The notes beneath the pieces were generated by a model. It did no database searches, was not told the origin of the DNA, and saw only the letters and a program-made list of their open reading frames with translations. A stretch of 64,000 nucleotides of DNA from contig JAJCZM010000026.1 in NCBI GenBank assembly GCA_029262375.1, forward strand, positions 40,198-104,197, written 5' to 3'. A program made the position numbers and the translations under genes. Source of the DNA: Deltaproteobacteria bacterium. Its GTDB lineage: Bacteria > Desulfobacterota > Binatia > UBA1149 > SPBQ01. Positions 39,880 to 60,243 of the stretch are shown in pieces (position 1 is the first letter of the stretch; each line of letters starts with the position of its first letter).

Positions 39880-40377
39880 ATGCGCGTATTGGTTTTTGAG
39901 ATAGACGGGCAGCGATTCGGGCTCGACGCATCCGGAGTCCGCGAGGTACTTCCGGCGGCCGCGCTCACCACGATCCCGAAGCTCCCGCCTGCAATCGAGG
40001 GCGTTCTCGACGTACGCGGCGTCGTCGTCCCCGTCATCGGCATGCGGCGCGCGTTGGGGCTCGATGATCGTGCGATGCGCTCGACCGACCATCTGGTACT
40101 CACCATGCACAGAGTCTCCGAGGAGCGTGGCGAATGCCTGGTTGGTCTGCACGTGGACCACGCCGTTGAGATCATTGCCATCGACGAAGCGAACCTTAGT
40201 CTCGCAGCCGACGGCGACACCACCGCCACGCACATCGCGCGTCTCGAGGGCGGCCTGATGTCGATCCACCTGGTCGAAGCAATTGTCGCCGATTGGATCG
40301 CGCAGCCGCGTGAGACGCTCGGCATCGGCGAGACAGCCACTCGCGTCGACGAAGGAAGCACACATGCAGCCAAGTAG
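39880..40377 (+). CDS. cheW: CheW-like coupling protein
   Basis: MRVLVFEIDGQRFGLDASGVREVL...VDHAVEII CheW fold pattern. 165 aa from ATG 39880. Confidence 0.75.
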   Translation: MRVLVFEIDGQRFGLDASGVREVLPAAALTTIPKLPPAIEGVLDVRGVVVPVIGMRRALGLDDRAMRSTDHLVLTMHRVSEERGECLVGLHVDHAVEIIAIDEANLSLAADGDTTATHIARLEGGLMSIHLVEAIVADWIAQPRETLGIGETATRVDEGSTHAAK

Positions 40378-41821
40378 TTTCACTACGGCGCATAGCCAGC
40401 TGTTGCAGTTTCTGTCGGAGCGGATGGGGCTCGAGCTGATCGGCACCCGGCGCGACGCAGCACTTTCGGCGATTCGCAGCGCGATGGCCGAGAGCGATGT
40501 CGAGACGTTCGACGAGTACTACGAACGCATCACGTCCGAAGACATCCATCTCGATCGATTGATCGACGCCGTATCCGTCGGTGAAACGTACTTTTTTCGT
40601 GAACCGGCGCAGTTCGAATTCCTACGCAATCACATCATTACCGGCCTGCAAGACGCGCGAGGCTACGACACACCGATCCATTGCTGGAGTGCCGGCTGCG
40701 CCAGCGGTGAGGAGGCGTACTCGATCGCAATTCTCCTCGAAGACATGGGCGTATCGCCGAGCTCACGAGTACTCGGCACCGATATCTCGAAGTCCGCGAT
40801 CGAACAGGCTCGCGCGGGGCTTTATCGTGCCTGGTCGCTGCGAACCGCCGACGCGGCGTTCATGGACCGCTACTTCTCTCTCGACGGCCTCAACTATCGC
40901 CTCTGCGACCGCATCCGCGAACGCGCAATATTCGAGCGCCACAATCTCACTGCACCAGTTGCGCCCGACATGGTCGTCGCTGAGTCGTGCGATGTGATCT
41001 TCCTGCGCAACGTACTCATTTACTTCGGTCGCGACGCAGCGACCGTTCTCATCGAACGTTTGGTTTCGTGCTTGACTGACGGTGGTTGGTTGATCACCGC
41101 ATCCTGCGATCCACCCATTCAAGGCCATCCGACCTTGGAATCCATTTCGAGCGAAGGCTGTGTGTTCTATCGTCATCGCAAGTCCGGCGCGCGCACCTTT
41201 CCGACTGTACGCAGCATTGCGATCGCACCCGAATGCGAACAACGCTTCGTTTCGACGCTGCCGGCGGCGGTACCGACAGTCAACGAAGTCGCAACGAAGC
41301 CGCATCCTTTCGATAGAGATGCGGCCGAAAAAGCATCACGCGTCGGAGATTACGTCGAAGTAATTCGTCTCACAGCCGACCACCCGGACGATCCGACGGC
41401 GAAAGCGATTTCCATCCGTGCAACCGCCAACTTGACGGGATCTCTCGGTGCCTACCGTGAATGCGACCGCTCGTGCAGAGACCACCCGTTCTCCGTCGAA
41501 CTACACTACCTGCGCGGGCTCTTCCTGTTCGACCTCGGGCGCAGTAGCGACGCAGCCGACGCGTTTCGACGCGTCGTCTATCTCGACCCTACGTTGGCGC
41601 TCGCTCACTTCTCGCTCGGTACCATCCTGGCGAAGTCCGGTGATATCTCGCGCGCCCGCCGCGCATTCCAGACCGCACACGGCCTGTGCATGGCAATGGA
41701 CCCCGATGCCATCATTCCCTTGACAGAACATGAACCGGCGTCGCGCCTCGCAGCCGCAGCCAGATCGCAGATTGACGGACTCGCTCCAGCCGACGACACA
41801 GCCATCGGTGAAAACCCATGA
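40364..41821 (+). CDS. cheR: chemotaxis methyltransferase CheR with C-terminal TPR repeats
   Basis: YFFREPAQFEF, IHCWSAGCASGEEAYSIAI (SAM-MTase motif I) and VIFLRNVLIYF motifs. C-terminal TPR-like helices. Confidence 0.85.
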   Translation: MQPSSFTTAHSQLLQFLSERMGLELIGTRRDAALSAIRSAMAESDVETFDEYYERITSEDIHLDRLIDAVSVGETYFFREPAQFEFLRNHIITGLQDARGYDTPIHCWSAGCASGEEAYSIAILLEDMGVSPSSRVLGTDISKSAIEQARAGLYRAWSLRTADAAFMDRYFSLDGLNYRLCDRIRERAIFERHNLTAPVAPDMVVAESCDVIFLRNVLIYFGRDAATVLIERLVSCLTDGGWLITASCDPPIQGHPTLESISSEGCVFYRHRKSGARTFPTVRSIAIAPECEQRFVSTLPAAVPTVNEVATKPHPFDRDAAEKASRVGDYVEVIRLTADHPDDPTAKAISIRATANLTGSLGAYRECDRSCRDHPFSVELHYLRGLFLFDLGRSSDAADAFRRVVYLDPTLALAHFSLGTILAKSGDISRARRAFQTAHGLCMAMDPDAIIPLTEHEPASRLAAAARSQIDGLAPADDTAIGENP

Positions 41822-42447
41822 GCAGCGAAATCCACGGACAACTGAATTCGGGCAGGTCGGCGACGAACCGCGGCTACGTCACCGAGCTGCGAGAACGTGC
41901 CGAGATAGCGCTCGACACGCTGACTGCGCCCCCTACGGACTTCGGCACAGAACTCCTGGAACAGCGTGCGCAGGACTTGGCGCGTCGCACCGACGAATCG
42001 ATCGACACCGACGACCTGACCGACGTCGTCGTCTTCCACGTCGGGCTGGGGACTTACGCCATCGAGACGACGCATACGCATCATATCGTACGCGTAACAA
42101 GCCTAGCACCGATCCCGGGGTGCGACAGTTACCTCAAGGGCGTCTGTTTGTACGGCGGTGAGATCGTTCCGGTCTTCGATATATCGACCGTGCTGGGCGA
42201 GACGACGAATATTCCGGCGACGAATGCGTGGGCGATACTTCTCGGTGAGTCCGAGATCGAAGTCGCAGTCGTGGTCGACCGTGTCGACACACTCACGACG
42301 ATACGAACAAACGAACTAGAAAAGCTTTCGCGCGCGGCGCTGATCAGCGAGGCCGGCAAATTCATCGAGGGCACGCTGCCCAGCGGCTTGACGCTCATTA
42401 GCGCGGCACGACTTCTCGAGCACGAGACGATGAGAATTTCGCGCTGA
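41818..42447 (+). CDS. second CheW-like domain protein
   Basis: [24 protein letters not shown]...[14 protein letters not shown] CheW-like pattern. Confidence 0.65.
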
Positions 42448-42466
42448 CAGCAGCGCTTGGAGTGGA

Positions 42467-44290
42467 GTGGTTATGTTGAAGAGGCTCAAGAACATGTCGG
42501 TCCCGCACCGGCTATACGCGGCGTTCGCCATCCAGGTGTGCCTGTTGGTCGCGGCCAGCCTATTCGTCTACGAGCACGTTTCGGACATCCGAAGCTCCGT
42601 GGTGCGAGTAGTCGCCGTCTCGCTCCCACTGGAACGCGCCGTGCAAGAGATGGAGCGCAGTACCGATTCGTTCGCATCCGCCGTCATGCGCTACCAGAAC
42701 GAGCTCGATCCGCACGACAAGAAGCGTGCGCAGGAAGCAGTAGAACGTTTCTCCAACAGCGTAGATCGCTTCAAGAAACTCGCCCGCACGAATTCGCAGC
42801 GGTCGTTGCTGCGTGAGATCTACGGTGTGCACGGAGAACTTCAACTCGCCGGCAACGGCTTGATGACCACCGCCGACGAGCTCACGGCCAGCAGCAACAG
42901 TATCGACCTGGGCGTTACGGATCTCACGAAAGAACTCGACGAGAACATCGCAGGCATCGATCGTGCGTTGCCTTTGGCCGCCGAACTCATCGAAGCCAGC
43001 TACGGCATTCGCGGCGCGATGCGTCAGGCCAGTGCCGCCGCACGCCACTACCGGCTCGCCCCCGACGCTCAGTTGCGCAACGATGCACTGACTGCCACCA
43101 ACACCTTCACTCGCCACGCGTCAGTGTACGACACGCTCGCCGACAGTGGCCTGGTCTACCCTTGGTTGGCCGCCGCGCGCGACCGTGGCAACGACGTCAA
43201 ATCGAAGGTCGTCGAGCACTTCGATCTGGTAGATAAGAACATTCGCGCCTCGCGCTCGTTTCGCAGCGGTGCGTCCGACGTGATGGCTCGCCTCACCGAA
43301 GAACTTCGACCGCAGATCATGCAGGAGCGCGCCGAAGTACAGCGCGAGGTCGATCGTGCCGTCGCCGAGGCGCAGGCTGTCGTTCTCACGATCGCTTTCG
43401 CAGGTCTATGTCTCGGCGCCGCCCTGGCAATGTGGTCGAGCGTGGGAATCATGCGACCGCTTCAGGAAGCGGTGCGCAAACTCAACGAAACGAGCAGCAA
43501 GCTCGCAGCCTCTTCGGCGGACCGCTCTGCCGGCGCGCAAGAGCAGGTAGCATCGGTCGCGGAGAGCATGGCCACCGTGACGGAAGTCGCCCGGTCCGCC
43601 GAACAGGCGGCGGATCGCGCTACCTCGGTTGCCGATTCTGTGCGCCAGACCGACCAGGTCGCACAATCCGGCCGTTCCGCTGTCGGCGTCGCGGTCACGG
43701 CAATGGCTCGGGCCAAAGATCAGACGCATTCGATTGCCGAAAACATCGTTGCGCTCGCCGAGCAAGCGAAAGCGATCGGTGAGATCATCACCAGCGTCAA
43801 CGACATCGCGGAACAGACCAACCTGCTTTCGCTCAACGCGTCGATCGAAGCATCGCGAGCGGGCGAACACGGCAAGGGCTTCCAGGTCGTCGCAGGCGAG
43901 GTCAAAGAGTTGGCCGGCCAATCGAAGATGGCGACGCGCCAAGTCCGGGAGATCCTCGGTGAGATCCAGAAGGCTACGAGCAGCGCCGTCCTTTCGACGG
44001 AAGACGGTACGCACACCGTCGAGAACGCGGTCGATGTCGTGAGCCAGGCGGGCGACACGATCAACTCGCTCGCCGAGACGATTGCAAACGCCGCCAACGC
44101 CGCTTCGCAGATCGCAGCACACGCGGCGCAACAGGCCACCGCGATGACGCAGATCAAAAGCGCCATGGAAGACATCGACAAGGTGGCGCAGAGCAATGCG
44201 TCGTCGGCGAAAGAGATTCAGGGAATGGCTTCCGATCTCAGCGGCCTAGGCGCAGAACTGCAGGCACTCGTGCGAGGCAGCATCGGCTAA
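42467..44290 (+). CDS. methyl-accepting chemotaxis protein (one N-terminal TM, HAMP, MCP signalling domain)
   Basis: Highly conserved [31 protein letters not shown] signalling-domain core. N-terminal TM helix. Confidence 0.9.
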
Positions 44291-44301
44291 CACCCATAGC
44301 G

Positions 44302-46782
44302 ATGCCGCACGACGACAACAGCTTGTTCGAGGCGATCCTCCCGACTTTCGTCGAGGAATTGCACGAACACGTCGATGCTCTGAACCGAAATCTTCTCGGA
44401 CTGGAAGGAAACGTTCCAGCAGAAGAGCGCGTCGAGCTACTCAACGCGCTCTTCCGTACCGCTCACACTCTCAAGGGCGCGTCCGCGATGATCAACATCG
44501 ACGTGCTCGAGACGACCTGCCATCAGTTCGAAGAAATACTCACAGCACTTCACAAGGGTGCGCTCGAGCTCGCGCCGAGCCTGATGCAGCTGTTGTTCGA
44601 GATGTGCGATGGAATTCAGGACGCAGGCTCGCGCCTGAACGAAGATCTAGGGCTCGACCAAGCCACGCTGCACGCGATAATTCCCAAGCTGGCGTTCGTC
44701 ATGATGGACGTCGATTGGCAACGCTACGAAGAAGTCGAGGCGGGTGAAGGCGACTCGACACGGGCGACCGTGCAGCCTTCCGATTTCGATTTCGACGCAC
44801 CTGGTGAACCGGAGCCCGTCTCCGCTTCGGCTCCTATTCTCAGTAGTCCGAACCTGCCCACCCTTCCGCCGCGCGAAGCGTCTCGCACGCTCATCGATCC
44901 GCTCGCCGCGATACTGGCACCCACAGAGGCCGCCGATGCGAACGATCGGGACCCCCACCACGACGCGGACACCGACGCCGATTCGCCGGCAATTGCATCG
45001 AGCGACGAAGGTTCGGCTCGTTCCTCTGCCGGTCAACGCATACGTTCATTCCGCATCACGGCTGACAAGATCGATACCCTGGTTGCGAAAGCAGGTGATT
45101 TGCTTGCGACGCGCGATCGGATGGATACGCGCGCAGAGGAAGTCCTCGGCCTACAGGAAGAGGTCGCGCAATGGCGCACCGAGTGGCTACAGACTCGCAA
45201 GACGCTCAGTTCTCTGACGTCCGGAGTACGCAGCGATACTCACCGCCATAAACTCGACCGCGAAGATCGCGTCGAGGAACTTTTTGACGACTTCTATCGA
45301 CGGCTGAGCGAGCTCGGAAAGAAACTCGATTCGCTGTCGTCGCACATGGCCACCGATCGCAGCTCGTTTCGACAATCCGTCATTCCAATGGAAGAGGATG
45401 TGCGCTCGATGCGTATGGTTCCTTTCTCGGAAGCATGCAACGGGTTCGAACGTATGGCTCGCGATGTCGCGCGACTCGGCAACAAGGAAGTCATTCTCGA
45501 AATCCGCGGCACCGAAGTGGAACTCGACCGTGCCGTGCTCGAGTCGATCAAGGACCCGCTGAGACACCTTGTGCGAAACGCCGTCGACCACGGCATCGAA
45601 GCACCGGCTACTCGCATCGCACACGGAAAGCCGGCGGCCGCAACGGTGGTGGTCTCGGCCCAACTCCAAGGTCCGCTGGTAGAGATCTCCGTGGCGGACG
45701 ACGGCCGCGGCATCAATCACGAAGCGATTCGTACCAAGGCCGAAACCCAGGGGATCGCGACACCGTCAGATCCACGCCAACTCGTCTCACTCATCTTCGA
45801 GCCGGGCTTCTCGACCGCCGAGAAGGTCACGAACATCTCGGGCCGCGGCGTCGGACTCGACGTCGTGAAAGCGACGATCGAAGGGCTACACGGCAGCATC
45901 GGCGTAGAATCCGAACTCGGAGCGGGAACGCGTTTCTCACTGAGCCTACCTCTCACTCTGACGACTATCCGAGTACTGCTTTTCCGTACCTGCGGTCAGC
46001 TGTTTGCAACATTGGCAACATCGGTGGACCAGCTCCTGACGGTTCGTCGCGAAGACATCCGCCTGGTAGGCGGACGGCCGGTAATCTCTCTCGGGTCGGA
46101 GCTCATACCGATCGCGTCTCTGGCCGAGACGATCGGAAAATCCGACGGGATGCTCGATGAACGTTCGGAACTCTCGACCATCGTCGTCACAACCGACAAT
46201 CATCGCGTCGCATTCACGGTGGATGAGTTCCTCGCAGAACAGCAGGTCGTCGTTAAGAGCCTCGGAAACCGACTGCACGGTGTACGCAACGTCTCGGGCG
46301 CCAGCGTTTTGTCGGGCGGCGAGATCGTCCTGATCCTCAATTCGGGCGAACTCGTCCGAGCGGTTCACGGCACCGCGTGGGACAGCGCCACCGCCTTCGC
46401 TTTCGAAGTGGAGAAGCCGCACTACCGCGTGCTTCTCGTCGATGACACGCCGACGACGCGCGTTCTGCAGAAAAGTATTCTCGAATCGGCCGGCTACGAG
46501 GTCCTCATGGCGGTTGACGGTATCGACGCATGGGCTGTGCTGCTCTCGGAGCAGATCGACCTCGTGATCACCGATGTGGACATGCCGCGCAAGGACGGAT
46601 TCGCGCTGACGCACGACATCCGCCAGAGCGAGGTCCATCGCCACCTGCCCATCATTCTCGTGACGGGGCGCGGCACCGACAGCGACAAAAGACGAGGCGC
46701 GGACGCGGGCGCGAACGCCTATATCGTCAAGAGCCAGTTCGATCACATGTCGTTGCTCTCAACGATCGAGAGGCTGATCTGA
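44302..46782 (+). CDS. cheA: hybrid CheA histidine kinase with C-terminal receiver domain (CheA-REC)
   Basis: Hpt (FRTAHTLKGASAMIN), HATPase_c (G boxes GRGVGLD, GAGTRF), CheW-like P5, and C-terminal REC (LLVDDTP...ITDVDMPRKDG...K). Confidence 0.9.
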   Translation: MPHDDNSLFEAILPTFVEELHEHVDALNRNLLGLEGNVPAEERVELLNALFRTAHTLKGASAMINIDVLETTCHQFEEILTALHKGALELAPSLMQLLFEMCDGIQDAGSRLNEDLGLDQATLHAIIPKLAFVMMDVDWQRYEEVEAGEGDSTRATVQPSDFDFDAPGEPEPVSASAPILSSPNLPTLPPREASRTLIDPLAAILAPTEAADANDRDPHHDADTDADSPAIASSDEGSARSSAGQRIRSFRITADKIDTLVAKAGDLLATRDRMDTRAEEVLGLQEEVAQWRTEWLQTRKTLSSLTSGVRSDTHRHKLDREDRVEELFDDFYRRLSELGKKLDSLSSHMATDRSSFRQSVIPMEEDVRSMRMVPFSEACNGFERMARDVARLGNKEVILEIRGTEVELDRAVLESIKDPLRHLVRNAVDHGIEAPATRIAHGKPAAATVVVSAQLQGPLVEISVADDGRGINHEAIRTKAETQGIATPSDPRQLVSLIFEPGFSTAEKVTNISGRGVGLDVVKATIEGLHGSIGVESELGAGTRFSLSLPLTLTTIRVLLFRTCGQLFATLATSVDQLLTVRREDIRLVGGRPVISLGSELIPIASLAETIGKSDGMLDERSELSTIVVTTDNHRVAFTVDEFLAEQQVVVKSLGNRLHGVRNVSGASVLSGGEIVLILNSGELVRAVHGTAWDSATAFAFEVEKPHYRVLLVDDTPTTRVLQKSILESAGYEVLMAVDGIDAWAVLLSEQIDLVITDVDMPRKDGFALTHDIRQSEVHRHLPIILVTGRGTDSDKRRGADAGANAYIVKSQFDHMSLLSTIERLI

Positions 46783-46783
46783 G

Positions 46784-47431
46784 ATGGTAGACGGTAGGGA
46801 CATTGACGAGCGCAGACGCTTCGACGTCGTCGTGATCGCGTCATCAACCGGCGGGCCCACTGCCCTCGGCGCCGTGCTCGGCGGTCTCGATGACGATTTC
46901 GACCTGCCGGTTCTCGTTGTCCAACACATGATGCCCGCGTTCACTCGAGAGTTCGCCGAGTGGCTGGGCCAGACGGTCTCACTACCGGTCAGCATTGCGC
47001 GACACGGCGACAAGCTCCGGCCCGGCACGGCGTACCTTGCACCGGAAGACGTCCACCTCACGCTCATCGATCGAAACACCGTGGGACTCAGCGACGCGCC
47101 GCGACGCGGCTATCACCGTCCCTCGGCAGACGTACTCTTCGAATCTGCGGCGGAGAGTTTCGGCGCACGAACACTCGCGGTCGTACTGACCGGCATGGGT
47201 AACGACGGCACCGAAGGTCTGGCCAAAATACACACCGCCGGCGGCCACGTATTGATACAAGACGAAGCGAGCTGCGTGGTGTACGGAATGCCCGGCGCGG
47301 CAGCAGCGGCGGGACTCGCCGACAGCATCGTCGCATTGGAAGACATGGCACAACGCATTACGCTGCTGGCTCGCAAGCGCGCGCCGAGAGCCGATTCGGG
47401 AATGGGAAAGGAGATCGCCGACCTCTCATGA
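46784..47431 (+). CDS. cheB: CheB methylesterase, catalytic domain only (no receiver)
   Basis: VVIASSTGGPTAL, VVQHMMPAFT and GMGNDG methylesterase motifs. 215 aa. Confidence 0.85.
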   Translation: MVDGRDIDERRRFDVVVIASSTGGPTALGAVLGGLDDDFDLPVLVVQHMMPAFTREFAEWLGQTVSLPVSIARHGDKLRPGTAYLAPEDVHLTLIDRNTVGLSDAPRRGYHRPSADVLFESAAESFGARTLAVVLTGMGNDGTEGLAKIHTAGGHVLIQDEASCVVYGMPGAAAAAGLADSIVALEDMAQRITLLARKRAPRADSGMGKEIADLS

Positions 47432-48201
47432 GCGACACCGTCGAAAAGCCCGCCGTTGTACTGACGGCCGATGACGACCCGGTCACCTCGCAGATTCTTC
47501 TCGCGTATCTGGAAGTCGAAGGCTACGAAGTGCTGCTTGCGGCCGACGGCGACGAGGCGATCGCGTTGGCGAAGGCAAATCCCCCCGATGCGGTGATCCT
47601 CGACTACAACATCCCCCCCACCAACGGTGCCGACGTAGCACGCGCGCTCCGCGCCGACCCGACGACACAGCACGCCGGCATCGCGCTGCTGACGGCTTCG
47701 ACCGAACTGGTGGACAACGGGGCCGAAGAAGATCTCTGGAACGCGCGCCTGTCCAAACCCGTAGATCAGCCTTACTTGGCGAGCATCGTCGCATCGCTCA
47801 TCGCGGGAGCGCATGCGCTCCTACGCGAGAATGCGCCCGAGGCGCCGGACGCGCCGCTCCCCGACGATCCGATTCAAGCAGAGTTCGTGAGCCGGCTTCG
47901 CGACAAGGTCCCGCAGATGCGCCAACTCGCTCGATGCGAAGCCAACGCGACCGCGCCGGGATCTCCGCTGCGCGTACTGCGGCGTCATCTTCAGCAGATC
48001 GAGGGATCGGCGAAGATGTGCGGCTTTCCGGAAGTTGAACTACGCGCCTTGGAAGCCGCGCAGTTGCTCGACTCTTGCCTTGGCGCGATCGAAGCAGGTG
48101 CCGAGAGCCATCTCGACGACCTGCGCGCTTCGATCGAAACCATCGCGGCACTGGCCAAGACCGCCGGCTCCATCAGCCCGACTGCCACAGACCGGCCGTA
48201 G
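47428..48201 (+). CDS. response regulator receiver fused to C-terminal Hpt-like domain
   Basis: REC (LTADDDP...ILDYNIPPTNG...SKP). The C-terminal HLQQIEGSAKMCGFPEVELRALEAAQ resembles an Hpt helix bundle. It is the last gene of the che cluster. Confidence 0.6.
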   Translation: MSDTVEKPAVVLTADDDPVTSQILLAYLEVEGYEVLLAADGDEAIALAKANPPDAVILDYNIPPTNGADVARALRADPTTQHAGIALLTASTELVDNGAEEDLWNARLSKPVDQPYLASIVASLIAGAHALLRENAPEAPDAPLPDDPIQAEFVSRLRDKVPQMRQLARCEANATAPGSPLRVLRRHLQQIEGSAKMCGFPEVELRALEAAQLLDSCLGAIEAGAESHLDDLRASIETIAALAKTAGSISPTATDRP

Positions 48202-52259: not shown

Positions 52260-53324
52260 TCAGCGTCCCAGCAGCCGACTGCCCGGTGCACAGGCTTCGA
52301 GTAGACTGCGCCGCTGTTGCGCCTCCAGCTTGTCCACACGCGTGGGCACCGCGCCACGAACGAGCTTCGTGCCGCGCTCAATCCAACCGTCGATTTCCGC
52401 ATCGAGTTCGAAGAACCTCGCGATACGTTCCAGCCAACGCGCCGGCTCCGCCACCAGCCGTTCGAACGGCACGCTTAGCACGCGCTCGGCAGGCAAGTCG
52501 TTCAGCCCCGACATTCCCTTCACAACCTGGTCGTTCCAGTAGCGTCCGAAGTATTGCGCCGGCGGGCGCGACTCGAGAATTCTCGTGATGGGATCGTCAC
52601 CGCTCGGCGGCGCCGCAACATCGATCGTACCGAGGGCGGAGATCGGCGTGCCGTCATCGAGCGGTGCATCGTACAGAAGGCAGATCGGGAGCCGATAGGC
52701 GTGATGTTCGCGCATCGAGAGCGCGGTCTCGCCGCCGTCGCGATGCAGATGCACGAACCGCGCATTCGGAAAGAGCCGTGCCAACTCGTGGGCGTATTCA
52801 ACCGACGATCCTGATCGCTCGATCCAGTGACGGCGACCGCACCGCTCGCCCAGCCATTCGAACATGCGCCGGTAGTGCGCGACCGGCGCTGAAGGCGGCG
52901 CCGCGTCGAGATATTCGACGAGCTGCTCAAACAACGTATCGGGATCTTCCGTCAGACGCGGCAGCATCGATACCAAGATCCACGGCAACGGTTCATCGCG
53001 CCGGTAACGGCCCGCTGCGCGATTCGATCGCTCGCCCGGATCGTCGACCGGATCGTCGACCGATTCATTGAAGGGATAGGTGATCTCGGCAACCTCGTAA
53101 CCACGCCGCAGCACGGCCGTCACGAACGGCTGCTCGGCCGTTACCAATCGACGAAACGCGGGGCCGTCAATGGGGTCGCTAGAGAATCTTCGCGACCAAT
53201 CCAAGCCCGTGAAGAACTCGAACAGGCTGAGCACTTCGGGATGCTCGCCAAGCATGCGCGAGAGCAACGTCGAGCCGCAGCGCCCCGTGCCGACGATGAA
53301 TCTTTCTGGTGACTGACCGGTCAT
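52260..53324 (-). CDS. sulfotransferase-family protein
   Basis: 5'-PSB-like P-loop FIVGTGRCGSTLLSRML near the N-terminus (start MTGQSPERF). The track ORF extends upstream and is probably spurious. Confidence 0.7.
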   Translation of the reverse strand: MTGQSPERFIVGTGRCGSTLLSRMLGEHPEVLSLFEFFTGLDWSRRFSSDPIDGPAFRRLVTAEQPFVTAVLRRGYEVAEITYPFNESVDDPVDDPGERSNRAAGRYRRDEPLPWILVSMLPRLTEDPDTLFEQLVEYLDAAPPSAPVAHYRRMFEWLGERCGRRHWIERSGSSVEYAHELARLFPNARFVHLHRDGGETALSMREHHAYRLPICLLYDAPLDDGTPISALGTIDVAAPPSGDDPITRILESRPPAQYFGRYWNDQVVKGMSGLNDLPAERVLSVPFERLVAEPARWLERIARFFELDAEIDGWIERGTKLVRGAVPTRVDKLEAQQRRSLLEACAPGSRLLGR

Positions 53325-53345
53325 GAGAAAAGACACCCGCGCTAG

Positions 53346-53399
53346 ATGTATCAGATGTGTCAGCTCTGTCAGGTCTCTCAGGCCTCTCAGGCCTCTGAC
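53346..53399. repeat. degenerate 9-bp tandem array x6 (nnnntntcag) in the divergent region between the sulfotransferase gene and the downstream hypothetical gene
   Basis: atgtatcag atgtgtcag ctctgtcag gtctctcag gcctctcag gcctctgac. The period is exactly 9. It starts 22 nt from the sulfotransferase start codon. Confidence 0.55.
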
Positions 53400-54701
53400 G
53401 GGTGGACTCACTGTGATCACTCTGCGAGGCTCGCGGCCGACGTGAGCACGCAAGGCAACGACCCGCAAGATATGCAAGATAAGGGTGTTACGGATTCTAC
53501 AGTTGATACGGGCGAAATCTGGCAGCGGTTGTGCCGCAGTGTCGAGAATCTGAATCGACGCATCATGGTAAACGCCGACGAAGACCCGAGCGGCACCGAG
53601 CAGGCGCAGGGTCTGCGCTACGCCGCCGACCTTCTCGCAGCCGGCATCACGGTCTGCATCGAACACGGCGACGCGGACCATCCCGAGTTCTGTCGCATGA
53701 TCGACCACAGCATGAAGTGGGGACTGGACGCACCCGACTGTCTCTACTTGCTCGCAAGCATAAGCGGCCGTCATCGTTACCGAATCACGGGCCACGCAGG
53801 CAGCGCCGCACACATGGACATTCAGGCGAACTGGGGGCACTTCGCCGAAGGCGACATCTCGAAGTGGGGAACGATCTCATCGATCGATTCGACCAGTCTC
53901 GTCACAGCCGCCGACGGCACCGTCGAGATCACCTTGGGCGACGGCACACCGGGAACGAACCATCTCGCACTCGATCAGCGCGCCGAGTTCGTACTCGTCC
54001 GGCAGTATTTCGGGGACTGGTCACGCGAACGCCCGGCCAACCTGACCATCGAACGCATCGGCCAGGGCCCGGCGCCGGATGCGCCGCAGATCACCGACAT
54101 GCAGCAGCGCTACGCACGCCTGTGCGACTGGCTCGATAAGAGCGGAGCGCTTTGGGAACAAATGAGCCAAGGCATGCTCACCATGGAACCGAACACCGTG
54201 TTCTCCAACGACCCTCAGCTCAGCAGCGAACGCTCGGGGATGCGCGGACAGATCTACTGCATGGGAAACTTCGCGTGCGCACCCGACGAAGCCGTGGTGA
54301 TCGAATTCGTGCGGCCGCGTGCGAAGTTCTGGACCGTCGGGCTGGCGAACTACTACTGGCAGAGTCTGGACTACGAGACACGACAGAGTTCGCTCAACAT
54401 GACCCAGGTACAGATCGACGACAGCCAGCACGGCGACGTCGGCGACGACATGGTCCGACTCGTCATCGCGCACGGCGACCCGGGGGTGGCGAACTGGCTC
54501 GACCCCTGCGGTCGGCACACCGGCACGCTCATCATCCGCTGCCTACTCGCCGACGCACCCATCTCACCCAAGCTCACGCTGGTCGCGCGCACGGGGCTCG
54601 ACGATCTACTTCCGCAAGCGACGCGTCGCGTGGATAGAAAAACTCGCGCGGCCCGGCTTCGAGCCCGCCACGCGGGCGTGCTCGCACGATACACTCGGTA
54701 G
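53346..54701 (+). CDS. hypothetical protein (about 400-450 aa), no family recognised; true start probably downstream (e.g. MQDKGV)
   Basis: Long ORF with a coding-like composition. The N-terminal 18 codons coincide with the 9-bp repeat array. Confidence 0.4.
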   Translation: MYQMCQLCQVSQASQASDGWTHCDHSARLAADVSTQGNDPQDMQDKGVTDSTVDTGEIWQRLCRSVENLNRRIMVNADEDPSGTEQAQGLRYAADLLAAGITVCIEHGDADHPEFCRMIDHSMKWGLDAPDCLYLLASISGRHRYRITGHAGSAAHMDIQANWGHFAEGDISKWGTISSIDSTSLVTAADGTVEITLGDGTPGTNHLALDQRAEFVLVRQYFGDWSRERPANLTIERIGQGPAPDAPQITDMQQRYARLCDWLDKSGALWEQMSQGMLTMEPNTVFSNDPQLSSERSGMRGQIYCMGNFACAPDEAVVIEFVRPRAKFWTVGLANYYWQSLDYETRQSSLNMTQVQIDDSQHGDVGDDMVRLVIAHGDPGVANWLDPCGRHTGTLIIRCLLADAPISPKLTLVARTGLDDLLPQATRRVDRKTRAARLRARHAGVLARYTR

Positions 54702-55096: not shown

Positions 55097-58000
55097 CTAA
55101 CCGCCGTACACCCAGCCCGAACAGATCTCGAACTCAGCCGCACAATTCGATTCGACGCAGCTCAAGCAGCCGCTACTCGATGGGTTCAGACAGTTCAGCG
55201 CGCAGTTCGAAGCAGCGCAGCCGCCCGTTCCACCGTAGCAATCGGCGCAGGCTGCGCTGAGACCGGTGTTGTTCTGTAGACCGGTCGAAATGCACGACGA
55301 GTTGCCGGTACACGACAATCCCAACGATTCGGCTTCCGCCCCCAAGTTGACCGACGCACGCACCGTCTCATCTTCCGGATTCAAACAATTGTCGCCGAGT
55401 ACCTCTGCAAGGCAGATGGTGTAATCGGTGCCGGCCGTCCCCAGCGACGCGATATCGGTGTACACCCGATATACCTGGCCACCGTTCACGGGCACCAAAC
55501 CACTGGCCGCGCTTCCGCCCACCGGAACCGGAGAAGGCGATGCTCCCGCCGCCGAGTTCGCGAGTAGCGAGCCGGGCTGACCGTCGTAAATGCCGGCGCC
55601 GAGCAATCCGCCGCCGCCGTCATGGAAGAGCGTGAGCCTCACGTTGGTAGAAGTCGGCGGCTGGAACAGTACGTCTTCGTCGCCGCCGGATATCGGACCC
55701 GCGAGGTCGACGACGTTGCCGTCGCCATCGGTAACGTTGCTAGAGAAACAACTCCCGATTTCCACACGACGCGCGGAGCGCACACAGACGTTGTAGGAAC
55801 CTGTTCCGGCGCCGGTTACGTCGCACACTTCCACTGTGTAGGTCGATCCGGAGTTGACGAGCGTGAGGCCCGTGCTGCCGGTCTGACCAACCGGAACGTT
55901 TCCGGTCGACGACAAGGTCGAAGCACCGAGCTTGAGTTCCCCACGCGCGAGTAGTGTGTCGCCGAAGTCGTTGTGCAGTTCTACGAAGACTTCCTCGGTC
56001 ACATGCACCGGGAACGAGAACGTATCGCAGTCGCTGCCGAACAGCGGAATGCTGTCATCGCGGCAAGAATCGGTGACGAGCTGGCCGGATTCCAACGTAC
56101 ACGTGGCACTACAGCCGTCGCCGCCGGTCTGGTTGCCGTCGTCGCAAACTTCGCCGCCGAGCACCAAGCCGTCGCCGCAACCGGCCTCGACCACACACAC
56201 CTCGTAGTTTCCGAAGGTGTCAAAGTCGGACGTATCGACCTGCAAGGTGTACTGAGTTCCGCCTGCGACGGCGAAGGGCGCCGTGACGCGTTCGGTGAAC
56301 GTGAATGCATCGGGTGTTTCGCTACCCGACACCGGCGTCGCGCCGTTGTACAGCGCTGCGGCCATCGTAGACGTGCCGCTCAGATTGCGCAGACGAACGA
56401 TGACGTTGGTCGAAGCAGGCGTCGTTAGGCGCACGCCTCTGTCGCCGCCGGCGCCGCTCGCACCGGCGATCTGAACGTCGTCACCGTCGCCGTTGCCGAC
56501 CGAGCCTGTCGTACAATCGCCGAGCGCTACGGTCGGCGCATCGAGAATGCAGACCTGGTACGGCCCGAACGTATCGGTCACCGCGCTATCGACATAAAGA
56601 TAGTAGGTGCCGGCTCCGAGCGAGGTCGGTCCGCCGGTACCGTTCTGACCGGCGACTACCGGTCCCGTGCCAAGTCCGGCAACGGCGCTACCCGCGTCGC
56701 CGGGCGTCGTCACCAACGAGGCTTCGAGGACGGTGGTCGCCCCCTGTTGATTGGTGAGTTCGATGAACACATCCTGTGTACTCGCCAACGTAAACACGTA
56801 GCCATCGTCACTGCCGCTCGGCGAACCGGCGAGGTCGATGCCGTCGGCATCGAGGAACGGATCGATGTAGCCGTTCGAACACGAATCGAAATCGATGACC
56901 GTCGTCGGGGCCGAACAGACCGAGCCGACGCATTCGCCCGAGACACAGTCGTCGCCGATCAGACAATTGTCCCCAAGCGCACACGGATTGCAGGAGCCGC
57001 CGCAATCGAGATCGGTTTCGTCGCCGTTGATCATTCCGTCAGAGCACGATGTGGGTGGAGGCGGATCGCCGAGCCCCGAGCATGCATCGAACGCGGGAAT
57101 GCAGTTGGCATCCAAACAGGTCCGGCATGGCGGCGAGCTCTGGTCGATCGCACAGACGCTCGCGCAGTTGAACAGTCCGCACTCTGAAGAATTGCCGTAG
57201 CACTGCGCGCATCCGCTGCTCAGCCCGGTCGCTGTAACGACGCAGGCGGCGACGCATGACGGAATGTTCGGGTCGGACAAACATCCAACGGTACACGGCA
57301 CTGCTTCGGCTTCGATGTCGAAGCTCATGTGCACGGCCTCGTCGGGCGCGTTGTCGCAGGCGCCACTCGGCGGAAGTGTCGTCGTCGTAGTCGTGGTAGT
57401 CGTCGTCGTGTCCAGCGTCGTCGTCGTGGTCGTCGTCGCGCCGATGTTGCCGGTACACACGTCGAAGGCAGGAATGCAGTTTGCTTCCACGCACGCGATG
57501 CATGCCGGCGCGGTTTGGCTGACAGCGCATTCCCCCGCGCAATTGAGTACGCCGCACTCCGCGGAGTTGCCGTAGCACACAGAACAGGGACCGCTCAGGC
57601 CGGTTGCCAGCGAAACGCAATCGCCGATGCACAGTGCGATATCGGGGGCACTCAGGCAGCCGAAGGTGCAGGTAGTGGTTTCCTCCTGTTCGTCGATCGC
57701 CGCGAGAATGGTTTCATCCGGAACGTTCGTACACGCGCCCTGCCCTCCGGGCAGTGTCGTCGTGGTAGTAGTAGTGGTGGTGGTGGTCGTCGTCGTCGCG
57801 CTACCCATCGTCGTCGTCGTCGCAATAGGCGCATCGGCGCAGAGGTCGAACGCGGGGATACAGTGCGTATCGAGACACGCGACGCAGGCCGGGGAATTTT
57901 GGTTGAGCACGCACTCGGCCGCACAGTTCTGGAAGCCGCACTCCGCCGACTCGCCGTAGCACAGCGAGCAACCCGCACTCAGTCCGGTTGCGGTAGAGAG

Positions 58001-59149
58001 GCAGGCACCGACGCATACGCCGATATCGGGAGCACCGAGGCATCCGAAAGTGCAGGTCGTGGTTTCGGCTTGAATATCCGTGCCGGCCGCGACCGCTTCA
58101 TCGGGCGGATTCGCGCAGGTAGTCAGAGGAATCTCGCCGGCGCCGCAGCTGGCGTTGATCGTGCCGTCGTCGAACGCGTCGCAGTCAAGGTCGAGACCTC
58201 CCATGCGTTTGAGCATGCCGCAGACGCGACAGTCGACCGCATTGGTGATGCAGGTGGTCAGCGCGGAGACATCCGCTGAGCTACCGCAGCCGGCCGGAAA
58301 GGCCACCGCGTAGTCCACGCCGGCACAGCGTGACGCGACCGTGGTCGCGAGCTTGCCGAGCTGCTTGCCGACCTTCGGGTTCACGCCGTCGGGTACCACC
58401 GACTGCACACAGCTCTCGATACCGACCTGATCGATGATCGAGCCGATCTTCAGCCCCGTCTTCTGACAGCTACTGAATGCACGCAGCTTCGTGGCGATGA
58501 GTTTTTCGTAGTCCTTGTGGACGCGCTGCTGGCAAGCGCTCCCGAGTGAGTCCGTATCGGGAACAACTCCGGCGCTCAGATCGACACCGAACAGATCCTG
58601 CGACACCCCGGCGTCCTCATCGACGGCGGCATCGTTGACGGTATCGGCATCGGTAAATCCGTACGAGATGGCTGCGCCGCACAGACTCGCTTCCGTCGTT
58701 TCTGTCTTGGTACGCGACTTCGCTACTTTGCCGCGAAGGTCGCGGGTCCAACACTGCGGGCCGGTTACAGCCGTGAGAAGCCCACGCGAGCCGTCGCGCA
58801 GACAGCTACGTACTTCTTTCCCCTCGGCCTTTACGACTTTCGTGGCGCGCAGGAAGACCTTGTTCACGCACTTCTGCTGGATCGAGTTGAGAGCCTGGGC
58901 TTCCGCCGGGACCGGCGCGGCTATCAATAAAATCGCCGCTATCGGCGCGGCTCTTAAAATCGCCGCTGTCGGCGCGGCTCTTAAAATCGCCGCTATTGGC
59001 GCGGCTCTTAGAATCGCCGCTATCGGCGCGGCTCTTAGAATCGCCGCTATCGGCGCGGCTCTTAGAATCGCCGCTGTCGGCGCGGCTCTTAGAATCGCCG
59101 CTGTCGCGAGTGTGGGGAGTATAGGGATGGACCGGAACGGGTGGATCAT
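55097..59149 (-). CDS. giant secreted cysteine-rich repeat protein with poly-Thr linkers, 4 PPC-like domains and a Myxococcales-type Cys-rich repeat
   Basis: 4 copies of a ~75-aa 10-Cys module (CTFGCL...GLS..C..CYG.S.ECG..NCA..C...C..C...CIPAFD.C). Poly-Thr runs up to 14 residues. CGDGLVLGGEVCDDGNQTGGDGCSATC matches the myxobacterial Cys-rich repeat. PPC-like DxxYxF...Y.VC..E units. Signal-peptide-like AAILLIAAPVPAEAQA follows the N-terminal repeats. Confidence 0.75.
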   Translation of the reverse strand: MIHPFRSIPILPTLATAAILRAAPTAAILRAAPIAAILRAAPIAAILRAAPIAAILRAAPTAAILRAAPIAAILLIAAPVPAEAQALNSIQQKCVNKVFLRATKVVKAEGKEVRSCLRDGSRGLLTAVTGPQCWTRDLRGKVAKSRTKTETTEASLCGAAISYGFTDADTVNDAAVDEDAGVSQDLFGVDLSAGVVPDTDSLGSACQQRVHKDYEKLIATKLRAFSSCQKTGLKIGSIIDQVGIESCVQSVVPDGVNPKVGKQLGKLATTVASRCAGVDYAVAFPAGCGSSADVSALTTCITNAVDCRVCGMLKRMGGLDLDCDAFDDGTINASCGAGEIPLTTCANPPDEAVAAGTDIQAETTTCTFGCLGAPDIGVCVGACLSTATGLSAGCSLCYGESAECGFQNCAAECVLNQNSPACVACLDTHCIPAFDLCADAPIATTTTMGSATTTTTTTTTTTTTTLPGGQGACTNVPDETILAAIDEQEETTTCTFGCLSAPDIALCIGDCVSLATGLSGPCSVCYGNSAECGVLNCAGECAVSQTAPACIACVEANCIPAFDVCTGNIGATTTTTTTLDTTTTTTTTTTTLPPSGACDNAPDEAVHMSFDIEAEAVPCTVGCLSDPNIPSCVAACVVTATGLSSGCAQCYGNSSECGLFNCASVCAIDQSSPPCRTCLDANCIPAFDACSGLGDPPPPTSCSDGMINGDETDLDCGGSCNPCALGDNCLIGDDCVSGECVGSVCSAPTTVIDFDSCSNGYIDPFLDADGIDLAGSPSGSDDGYVFTLASTQDVFIELTNQQGATTVLEASLVTTPGDAGSAVAGLGTGPVVAGQNGTGGPTSLGAGTYYLYVDSAVTDTFGPYQVCILDAPTVALGDCTTGSVGNGDGDDVQIAGASGAGGDRGVRLTTPASTNVIVRLRNLSGTSTMAAALYNGATPVSGSETPDAFTFTERVTAPFAVAGGTQYTLQVDTSDFDTFGNYEVCVVEAGCGDGLVLGGEVCDDGNQTGGDGCSATCTLESGQLVTDSCRDDSIPLFGSDCDTFSFPVHVTEEVFVELHNDFGDTLLARGELKLGASTLSSTGNVPVGQTGSTGLTLVNSGSTYTVEVCDVTGAGTGSYNVCVRSARRVEIGSCFSSNVTDGDGNVVDLAGPISGGDEDVLFQPPTSTNVRLTLFHDGGGGLLGAGIYDGQPGSLLANSAAGASPSPVPVGGSAASGLVPVNGGQVYRVYTDIASLGTAGTDYTICLAEVLGDNCLNPEDETVRASVNLGAEAESLGLSCTGNSSCISTGLQNNTGLSAACADCYGGTGGCAASNCALNCLNPSSSGCLSCVESNCAAEFEICSGWVYGG
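58912..59106 (-). repeat. 27-bp in-frame VNTR (about 6.5 copies) encoding AAILRAAP[I/T] at the extreme 5' end of the giant-protein ORF
   Basis: Unit atcgccgct[ag]t[ct]ggcgcggctctta[ag]a, with near-identical copies. It lies between the only upstream ATG (59147-59149) and the signal-peptide-like hydrophobic segment. Confidence 0.8.
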
Positions 59150-59306
59150 CGACGCGAGTCTCCCGTCGCCTCGCGACGACTACGTGAACGGAAAATAGCA
59201 GGCATTGGATGCCCTGGCCGCGCGCGGGGCCCGACCACTCGCAACGACTACATCCTGAAACAGGTTCTACGGCCCCAAAGCCCGTGATGTCAAGGGATTC
59301 CCAAAG

Positions 59307-59330
59307 CCTAACAAACATTTGTTTGTTAGG
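59307..59330. promoter_or_regulatory. 24-bp perfect AT-rich palindrome (11-2-11), candidate operator in the divergent region between the giant-protein gene and the tesA-like operon
   Basis: cctaacaaaca-tt-tgtttgttagg. It shares the 10-mer tgtttgttag with the TetR promoter spacer at 48772-48781. Confidence 0.45.
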
Positions 59331-59430
59331 GGCGAGTATCTCTCTGCGAGCGCGTCGGAGGGTTCGGGCGGCAGCGCCACCCGAAGGAGTGGGGGTCGCG
59401 GGCGAGCCCATCAGCCGCAGGCCTCGGACG

Positions 59431-59510
59431 AGCCGACAGGCGTTCCCAGCAGCCGACAGGCGTTCCCAACAGCCGACAGGCGTTCCCAGGAGCCTACGCG
59501 TTCCCAAAGG
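59431..59510. repeat. 20-bp minisatellite x3.5 (agccgacaggcgttcccagc)
   Basis: Three near-perfect copies plus one degenerate copy. The period is not a multiple of 3, so it is non-coding and lies upstream of the tesA-like gene. Confidence 0.7.
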
Positions 59511-59532
59511 AGCCGAGGGCCAGGCTCGGCGG

Positions 59533-60243
59533 ATGCCTCCGAACGATCGTGCGCTGGATTCGCGGCTCCCGTCGACCTTGCTAAGGTCACTCGTCGTGCG
59601 ACCGTTTCTTCGTTGCTTGTCAGCGGCCGTATTGGCCTCGTTCTCAGTATGCGCCTCGCCGTCAGGAGCCGAACCGCTGGTCGTTTGCCTCGGCGACTCG
59701 CTGACCGAGGGCTACGGAATCGATCCCGCGAAGTCCTACCCCGCCCTACTCGAGAAACTTTTGGCTGAGCGTGGCTGGCCCGATGTCGAAGTCGTCAACG
59801 CCGGTATCAGCGGCTCGACCTCGGCGAGCGGACGCGCACGTCTGCAGTGGCAGCTACGCCGCAAGCCCGACGTGTTGATCATCGCGCTTGGCGCAAACGA
59901 TGGACTGCGCGGCGTCGAGCTCGACGCGAGCAAGAAGAATCTTGCGTCGATCGTTGAACTCGCGCAGGCAAACGAGATTACCGTGCTGCTGGCAGGCATG
60001 AAGCTACCGCCCAATTACGGCGCCGAGTACACGCAACAGTTCGAGCGCATGTACGGCGAGCTCGCGTCCGAATTCGACGTCACGCTACTCCCCTTCTTGC
60101 TGAAGGATGTCGCCGCGCGCCCGAAGCTGAACCTGCCCGATGGCATTCACCCGAACGCCGAGGGCTACGCGATCGTCGCCTCGACGGTTGCCGATGCGGT
60201 CGCACCTCTTCTCAAGCCCATAACTGCTGTTGGTAACTCATGA
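59533..60243 (+). CDS. tesA: SGNH/GDSL arylesterase, TesA (thioesterase I/lysophospholipase L1)-like, secreted
   Basis: GDSLTEGYG block I, GANDG block III, DGIHPN block V. Signal peptide. The start is ambiguous (59533 or an internal GTG). Confidence 0.8.
   Translation: MPPNDRALDSRLPSTLLRSLVVRPFLRCLSAAVLASFSVCASPSGAEPLVVCLGDSLTEGYGIDPAKSYPALLEKLLAERGWPDVEVVNAGISGSTSASGRARLQWQLRRKPDVLIIALGANDGLRGVELDASKKNLASIVELAQANEITVLLAGMKLPPNYGAEYTQQFERMYGELASEFDVTLLPFLLKDVAARPKLNLPDGIHPNAEGYAIVASTVADAVAPLLKPITAVGNS

Follow-up and report, generated by a model that had tools for sequence, protein, structure and literature searches.

A 64,000-nucleotide stretch of the Deltaproteobacteria bacterium contig JAJCZM010000026.1 (positions 40,198 to 104,197; referred to here as the window) was analysed for a gene encoding a giant cysteine-rich protein, which had been described in an earlier reading of the DNA letters (the original prediction). 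The gene is a single ATG-initiated open reading frame (ORF) on the minus strand, at positions 55097-59149, encoding 1350 amino acids (aa), as had been claimed, and containing 90 cysteines. Analysis of the protein showed that it contains four copies of a cysteine-rich module, and that this module belongs to a large and previously undescribed family present in bacteria and microbial eukaryotes. Structure prediction and the pattern of cysteine loss across the family indicate that the module is most likely a self-contained domain of ~95 aa, comprising six short helices and seven disulfides. The most likely role of the protein as a whole, held at about even odds, is that of a non-enzymatic binding, adhesin or matrix protein of the extracellular space or cell envelope; this reading is weighed below against other roles for the module.

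The repeated module has 14 cysteines and ~95 amino acids

The four modules are homologous to each other, and each matched a family profile built from unrelated family members with an E-value of 1e-22 to 1e-27, confirming the four cysteine-rich copies described originally. The module had been assigned 10 cysteines and ~75 aa, both of which are too low. The cysteine pattern given at the time itself holds 13 cysteines, several of its spacings are wrong by one or more residues, and one more invariant cysteine is located 21 residues upstream, within a C-x-N-x-x-D motif, giving a total of 14. The pattern was said to be invariant in all four copies; this applies to copies 1-3, but the C-terminal copy lacks C22 and C39 and has CAAEFE in place of CIPAFD.

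Copies 1-3 share 57-61% amino acid identity with each other, and copy 4 shares 37-38% with those three. The three tandem copies lie 375 and 384 nt apart, and their DNA sequences share 62-71% identity over 232 nt, in agreement with the original estimate of roughly 70%. The repeats had also been judged to be old. Comparison with orthologs (described below) showed that modules group by position, indicating that the triplication is indeed old and that copies were gained and lost afterwards. Among the orthologs, the C-terminal 12-Cys copy is more conserved than any other module, with 68-78% identity.

The full-length module instances in relatives mostly have 14 cysteines (138/165), with 12 cysteines in a further 23/165. 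In an alignment of 240 modules the 14 cysteine columns are 89-100% conserved, and conservation outside the cysteines is confined to N3, D6, G45-L46-S47, F90 and G95, which are probable structural positions. The net charge of the modules averages -9.6 (-8 to -12 for the copies in the window), most of them being strongly acidic.

Cysteines are lost in pairs from a predicted six-helix domain

Structure prediction, which the original prediction had named as a check, was performed with AlphaFold2 (AF2) using 82 diverse module sequences, and returned a confident domain of six helices of 8-22 residues each (predicted local distance difference test score, pLDDT, 95.7; predicted template modelling score, pTM, 0.85). 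A Foldseek search with this model gave no match in the PDB and none in a viral library.

Across the family, C22 was lost together with C39 in 17/17 sequences lacking C39, C26 was lost together with C35 in 20/25, and C60 together with C86 in 3/3. Pairwise disappearance of this kind is a signature of disulfides, and marks a twin CX3C hairpin formed by helices 2 and 3. The crossed loss of C22 with C39 and of C26 with C35 is as expected of an antiparallel helical hairpin held by two disulfides, and these two pairs are accordingly proposed from the aligned sequences as C22-C39 and C26-C35. Twin CX3C or CX9C helical hairpins occur in CHCH-type domains and small Tim proteins, which helices 2 and 3 of the module resemble in their CX3C...CX3C arrangement and crossed pairs. 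Unlike in those proteins, the hairpin makes up one third of a six-helix, 14-Cys domain, and the proteins carrying it are predicted to be exported and not mitochondrial; neither Foldseek nor Pfam searches of 82 modules gave a sequence or fold match linking the module to the CHCH type.

A different use of the cysteines would be storage of metal. The Csp proteins are copper-storage four-helix bundles of methanotrophs, and in a Csp-like module the cysteines would not be disulfide-bonded, instead lining the helical core to hold Cu(I) or another thiophilic metal. The CX3C and CX2C spacings on helices are compatible with this, one of the beta units of the window protein weakly matches the copper-binding CorA of a methanotroph (Foldseek, rank 16), and the host lineage is reported to be methylotrophic (PMC8262859). 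However, the cysteines are lost in pairs, not in clusters, the six short helices do not form a long four-helix bundle, the eukaryotic members have ordinary secretory signal peptides, and no Csp-type copper-storage protein was matched in searches of Pfam, PDB sequences or Foldseek, making this reading very improbable.

The module defines a large family in bacteria and microbial eukaryotes

Word-indexed homology searches with module alignments gave only 1 and 4 matches. The motif as it stands in the window retrieved no relatives from a collection of contigs, in which the window protein itself is also absent. The family was revealed only when 1.84 billion cluster representatives (clustered at 50% identity) were searched exhaustively with a profile. 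In this search there were 1575 representatives with E<=1e-3, 296 with E<=1e-10 and 23 with E<=1e-30. A degenerate-motif scan of species-representative genomes identified 11 loci encoding the module, all in metagenome-assembled genomes (MAGs) and labelled Myxococcales, Myxococcota, Bradymonadia or 'Deltaproteobacteria', plus one Binatia. The module, whose distribution across Myxococcota the original prediction had suggested examining, is present in Myxococcota MAGs and also in Bradymonadia, Binatia and microbial eukaryotes. Eukaryotic members include P0044, encoded in a EukProt transcriptome of Leptophrys vorax (a vampyrellid amoeba), and P0046, from MMETSP; P0036 (accession ERR1719410) has the source label 'merc', presumably a catalogue of marine eukaryotes. 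Signal peptides of the eukaryotic type are present in several proteins with Lys-rich tandem modules. The members listed on the eukaryote side are P0044, P0046, P0036, P0012, P0013, P0008 and P0074.

The usual bacterial member is small, with a signal or lipobox followed by a low-complexity acidic linker that leads to a single module at the extreme C-terminus. Among the best 151 representatives, the module is located at the extreme C-terminus in 106, and a lipobox-like N-terminus is present in 60. In larger members the module is accompanied by fasciclin domains (P0021, P0086), by true PPC domains together with Dicty-type Cys repeats (P0030) or, in some cases, by DUF4397.

Literature searches did not find a description of this domain. 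Disulfide-rich repeat domains are commonplace in large secreted bacterial proteins, and a giant Cys-rich repeat protein of a delta-type lineage is of an ordinary type; the module itself is more notable, being an undescribed, large, cross-kingdom family with a confident predicted structure for which there is no curated model, solved structure or Foldseek match in the PDB. Definition of the family would annotate thousands of proteins currently named 'hypothetical' in Myxococcota, Bradymonadia, Binatia and protist transcriptomes, would provide a compact helical scaffold with seven putative disulfides for structural study, and would permit a test for relatives of the vanabins outside ascidians.

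The module resembles Vanabin-2 in its cysteine framework, below the threshold for membership

Membership of a known family was judged by the Pfam gathering threshold (hmmscan) or the NCBIfam curated cutoff. No Pfam-A model reached threshold on the module in ten diverse relatives, and a search of the whole window protein against Pfam-A at E<=10 returned only a sub-threshold DUF4215 match, outside the modules. In 82 isolated modules, Pfam-A at E<=1 gave a sub-threshold Vanabin-2 match (PF11437) in 25, plus single chance matches, and NCBIfam gave only scattered single matches with E>=0.039. EGF-like and TNFR-like domains, raised originally as possible identities, were absent among the matches. 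The description of the module as novel-looking therefore stands in that no Pfam or NCBIfam model matches at threshold, but not in the sense of being peculiar to this protein, given the size of the family. PDB sequences gave no match to a single module. A PDB profile match to laccase BP76 (8r7i; E 0.014) is a marginal match of cysteine spacing, and was set aside because Foldseek gave it no support.

Vanabin-2 is the only Cys-rich Pfam family that recurs among the 82 modules (best E 0.0036), raising the possibility that the module is a distant vanabin relative that binds or reduces metal, either by holding cations on its surface or through redox-labile disulfides. MopE-type metal-binding motifs are present in neighbour genes at some loci. 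Vanabin-2 is a small (~90 aa), all-helical protein stapled by many disulfides (PMC9486056), and the module is predicted to be of this kind. Alignment of the family profile with Vanabin2 (sequence checked against 1VFI) by hhalign placed 12 cysteines in register over 71 columns, with a probability of only 37%, and the hidden Markov model score of Vanabin2 was 4.6 bits, compared to -17 ± 4 bits for fully shuffled sequences (0/1000 reached 4.6). However, when the cysteines were held fixed during shuffling the scores were 0.2 ± 3.0 bits and 72/1000 reached the observed score, showing that the resemblance is a shared cysteine framework and nothing more. All of the Pfam scores are under the gathering score of 25 bits, and 1VFI was returned neither by the PDB profile search of the family nor by Foldseek of the module model. 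A phmmer search of Vanabin2 against 178 proteins was also rejected, as its small E-values are due to the tiny database and the best alignment is out of register.

The module further differs from vanabins in composition. Vanabins have 18 cysteines in nine disulfides, and Vanabin2 binds V(IV) through the basic residues K10, K24, K38, R41 and R42 (PMC9486056). The module has 14 cysteines (12 in the variant) and a proposed seven disulfides, it is acidic in most members, and it has an extra N-terminal helix that bears the invariant C-x-N-x-x-D. Four of the five V(IV) sites fall inside the alignment, where the corresponding module columns are 0-5% Lys/Arg, so these residues are not conserved. Membership of the module in Vanabin-2 is not supported by these sequence comparisons, remote homology is neither shown nor excluded by them, and a vanabin-like metal-binding or metal-reducing role is unlikely. 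A broader proposal, which we regard as rather unlikely, is that the module represents an ancient extracellular superfamily of bacteria and predatory or marine protists of which the vanabins would be a derived branch, and that it would be a metal or redox domain, or a new fold, and not a passive adhesin repeat. In the literature searched, vanabins are described from ascidians only.

Domain architecture of the window protein

The order of domains from N- to C-terminus is an N-terminal domain, three tandem modules, a small 8-Cys motif, two beta units, a myxobacterial repeat, two more beta units, and the C-terminal module (Table 1). Modules had originally been described as alternating with the beta units, which is incorrect, three being in tandem and the fourth at the C-terminus. 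The poly-Thr linkers are present as described, with a longest run of 14 Thr, and may be O-glycosylated. Every domain unit has an even number of cysteines, which fits self-contained disulfide-bonded domains; by this count up to 45 disulfides could form in the whole protein. Pfam and NCBIfam scans of the whole protein found no catalytic domain, TIGR02232 being the sole family above threshold.

Table 1 Features of the 1350-aa window protein, with positions in the window
Feature	Position	Strand	Basis or remark
Whole ORF, 1350 aa, 90 Cys	55097..59149	-	ORF listing, translation
Long N-terminal export signal (predicted), aa 1-84	58898..59149	-	Read from sequence
27-bp tandem repeat, 6.5 copies, 95% matches	58931..59106	-	Inside signal-peptide region; absent from orthologs
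N-terminal 14-Cys domain, aa 88-340	58130..58888	-	No family match; common to orthologs and P0177
14-Cys helical module copy 1, aa 345-441	57827..58117	-	Copy alignment, AF2, family profile
Thr-rich linker 1, aa 442-472, with 14-Thr run	57734..57826	-	Sequence
14-Cys helical module copy 2, aa 473-569	57443..57733	-	Copy alignment, family profile
Thr-rich linker 2, aa 570-597	57359..57442	-	Sequence
14-Cys helical module copy 3, aa 598-694	57068..57358	-	Copy alignment, family profile
Small 8-Cys motif, aa 702-745, CSDGMINGDETDLDCGGSC...	56915..57046	-	No family match; kept in ortholog P0002
PPC/CBD-like beta-sandwich unit 1, aa 747-870	56540..56911	-	AF2 pLDDT 86.7; best Foldseek match 5sv5, E 8e-7
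PPC/CBD-like beta-sandwich unit 2, aa 871-988	56186..56539	-	Homology among beta units, orthologs
TIGR02232 myxo_disulf_rpt, aa 990-1023	56081..56182	-	NCBIfam match; sub-threshold DUF4215 on same stretch
PPC/CBD-like beta-sandwich unit 3, aa 1024-1125	55775..56080	-	Homology among beta units, orthologs
PPC/CBD-like beta-sandwich unit 4, aa 1126-1250	55400..55774	-	Homology among beta units, orthologs
C-terminal 12-Cys module variant, aa 1255-1347	55109..55387	-	Copy alignment, family profile, orthologs
CBD, collagen-binding domain

The four beta units are homologous to each other, and the predicted fold of unit 1 is PPC-like. Its top Foldseek match is a collagenase PPC domain from Bacillus anthracis (5sv5; TM-scores 0.63/0.74), followed by the ColG collagen-binding domain 1nqj (E 1.5e-5), with 1nqj, 2o8o and 4hpk all matching at E 1e-5 to 1e-4. 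The original claim of four PPC-like units is thus upheld for their number and predicted fold, but not at the level of sequence, where Pfam PPC (PF04151) did not match any unit even at E<=10 and hhalign of the units against the true PPC domains of P0030 gave a probability of only 13.8%. The units resemble PPC and ColG/ColH collagen-binding domains in predicted fold and size, and have a Y-x-[LV] motif in the C-terminal strand which we take to be like that of PPC domains. In contrast to PPC domains, a separate Cys pair closes each unit and no protease is attached.

The myxobacterial Cys-rich repeat was correctly recognised originally, and scores 45.2 bits against TIGR02232 (cutoff 20.8; E 6e-12). 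The window protein shares with the TIGR02232 and DUF4215 (PF13948) proteins of Myxococcota an acidic, disulfide-rich secreted setting in delta-type lineages. However, the TIGR02232 repeat (~38 aa, 4 Cys) is unrelated to the 95-aa helical module, and there is no match between the two.

Two further cysteine-rich regions had no match to Pfam or NCBIfam models: the N-terminal domain, with 14 cysteines, and the 8-Cys motif CSDGMINGDETDLDCGGSCNPCALGDNCLIGDDCVSGECVGSVC located between module 3 and beta unit 1. The latter was not mentioned in the original prediction, and is conserved in ortholog P0002 (57% identity).

The putative export signal is unusually long and closes with a hydrophobic segment and AEA-QA, with cleavage expected between AEA and QA. 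Its length is due to the 27-bp repeat, which encodes (AAILRAAPx)n and, with seven copies of the 9-aa unit, stretches the signal to ~84 aa. None of six orthologs or partial orthologs has the (AAILRAAPx)n repeat, their signals being an ordinary 23-35 aa, indicating that the repeat is a recent, lineage-specific in-frame expansion.

Full-length orthologs

Full-length orthologs, with 50-69% identity, were found in a handful of clusters only. Of those with an organism name, P0002 (HYC53483.1), P0176 and locus L008 are labelled as Candidatus Binatia MAGs, which makes an uncultured Binatia bacterium a more likely host of the window protein than a myxobacterium. The whole architecture is kept in the orthologs, with two, three or four tandem modules. 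P0174, on a 686-kb contig, has the NCBI label 'Candidatus Limnocylindrales bacterium', and its modules are 79-93% identical to those of the Binatia-labelled P0002; the label probably reflects misassigned taxonomy or a fault in binning.

Proposed role of the window protein

The absence of a catalytic domain, the collagen-binding type of beta fold, the relatives with fasciclin and PPC domains, the variable number of repeats and the lack of a conserved operon partner together point to a binding or adhesin function. Relatives with fasciclin and PPC domains likewise make the adhesin or matrix protein that had been suggested originally a plausible reading by analogy. In the model proposed, the protein would be exported and undergo oxidative folding to give a series of separate domains, each locked by disulfides, with three helical modules strung on extended Thr-rich spacers, followed by the four PPC/CBD-like sandwiches, and capped by the 12-Cys module. 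Avid binding to a polymeric or surface ligand would come from the beta-sandwiches together with the rigid, acidic helical modules. The tandem module count, which is 2-4 in the orthologs, would determine reach and valency, with the Thr-rich spacers also contributing to reach.

Several observations weigh against this model. The protein has no recognisable anchor, lacking both a lipobox and a C-terminal sorting signal. Many family members are small and have just one module behind a disordered acidic linker and a signal or lipobox, implying that the module has a function of its own, which need not be adhesion. Module surfaces are highly variable and their charge flips, bacterial modules being acidic and eukaryote-like modules Lys-rich, which speaks against one ligand conserved across the family. 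The disulfide pattern is derived from co-loss of cysteines, not from coordinates. Finally, no ligand, localisation or phenotype is on record for any family member, and for this reason we place the binding, adhesin or matrix reading at the midpoint between acceptance and rejection.

Variable surfaces would also be expected if the module has no ligand and is a rigid spacer, resistant to proteases, that works with the Thr-rich linkers to hold the PPC-like domains away from the cell. The change in tandem copy number from two to four among orthologs would suit a spacer, as would the restriction of conservation to cysteines and probable helix caps. However, in most members, which are small, the single C-terminal module is the only folded part and there is nothing to project, and in the orthologs it is the C-terminal 12-Cys copy that is best conserved. 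A pure spacer is therefore a rather unlikely alternative to the binding protein proposed above.

Gene neighbourhood

The gene is alone on the minus strand. On one side are a convergent DUF1214-like gene and a sulfotransferase gene, and on the other side a GDSL-lipase gene in divergent orientation precedes an ABC transporter operon. A conserved operon partner was looked for and rejected, as the neighbours are different at each of three ortholog loci (an aminotransferase; a P450; a porin with TctABC). The lack of conserved neighbours fits a stand-alone structural or binding protein.

The neighbours of some one-module genes suggest a different function, in which the module would bind a hydrophobic small molecule (a lipid, sterol or hydrocarbon) and lipoproteins carrying it would pass the ligand to a FadL/TodX channel. 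Small, disulfide-braced helical proteins that bind hydrophobic ligands include the non-specific lipid-transfer proteins, saposins and elicitins. At two loci (L002, 2214-4015; L010, 4791-6604) a one-module gene is directly upstream of a gene for a FadL/TodX-family outer-membrane channel, with a 3-nt gap at one locus and a stop-start overlap at the other, and the two channel proteins share 39% identity, which suggests a lipoprotein and channel pair in one module subfamily. Aldehyde dehydrogenases and short-chain dehydrogenases/reductases (SDRs) are encoded near the module genes of L011, L021 and L023, with a GMC oxidoreductase at L011, and Binatota are described as predicted alkane degraders and methylotrophs (PMC8262859). 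However, such contexts occur at few of about 20 loci, L021 and L023 are closely related, none of these contexts is present at the loci of the window-protein orthologs, and Foldseek against the PDB found no similarity to any lipid-binding helical protein. These neighbour patterns are leads and not established links, and a lipid-binding role for the module is distinctly unlikely.

At L011 (5382-10255), a sulfotransferase and DUF1214 pair, SDRs, an aldehyde dehydrogenase and a GMC oxidoreductase flank the small one-module gene. A Sulfotransfer_3 gene and a DUF1214-like gene also adjoin the window gene (52260-54701); as listed, these two ORFs overlap at 53346-53840, so the true start of one or both probably lies further inside. 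The pairing is not present at the loci of the orthologs.

A promoter and terminator scan of the gene was uninformative. Between the window gene and the GDSL-lipase gene there is a 20-bp tandem repeat of 3.9 copies (59431-59516; consensus AGCCGACAGGCGTTCCCAGC), which could represent regulator binding sites. The GDSL-lipase ORF (59209-60243) has a ~150-aa N-terminal extension before the Pfam domain and an internal Met with a signal-like stretch; its start is probably near 59533, which would give a divergent intergenic region of ~380 bp. Upstream, at 40283-48201, is a chemotaxis cluster (CheR-TPR, a methyl-accepting chemotaxis protein and a CheA-CheW-receiver hybrid), and genes for a TetR regulator, a fatty-acid hydroxylase and a NUDIX protein, with no apparent tie to the window gene, are located near this cluster.

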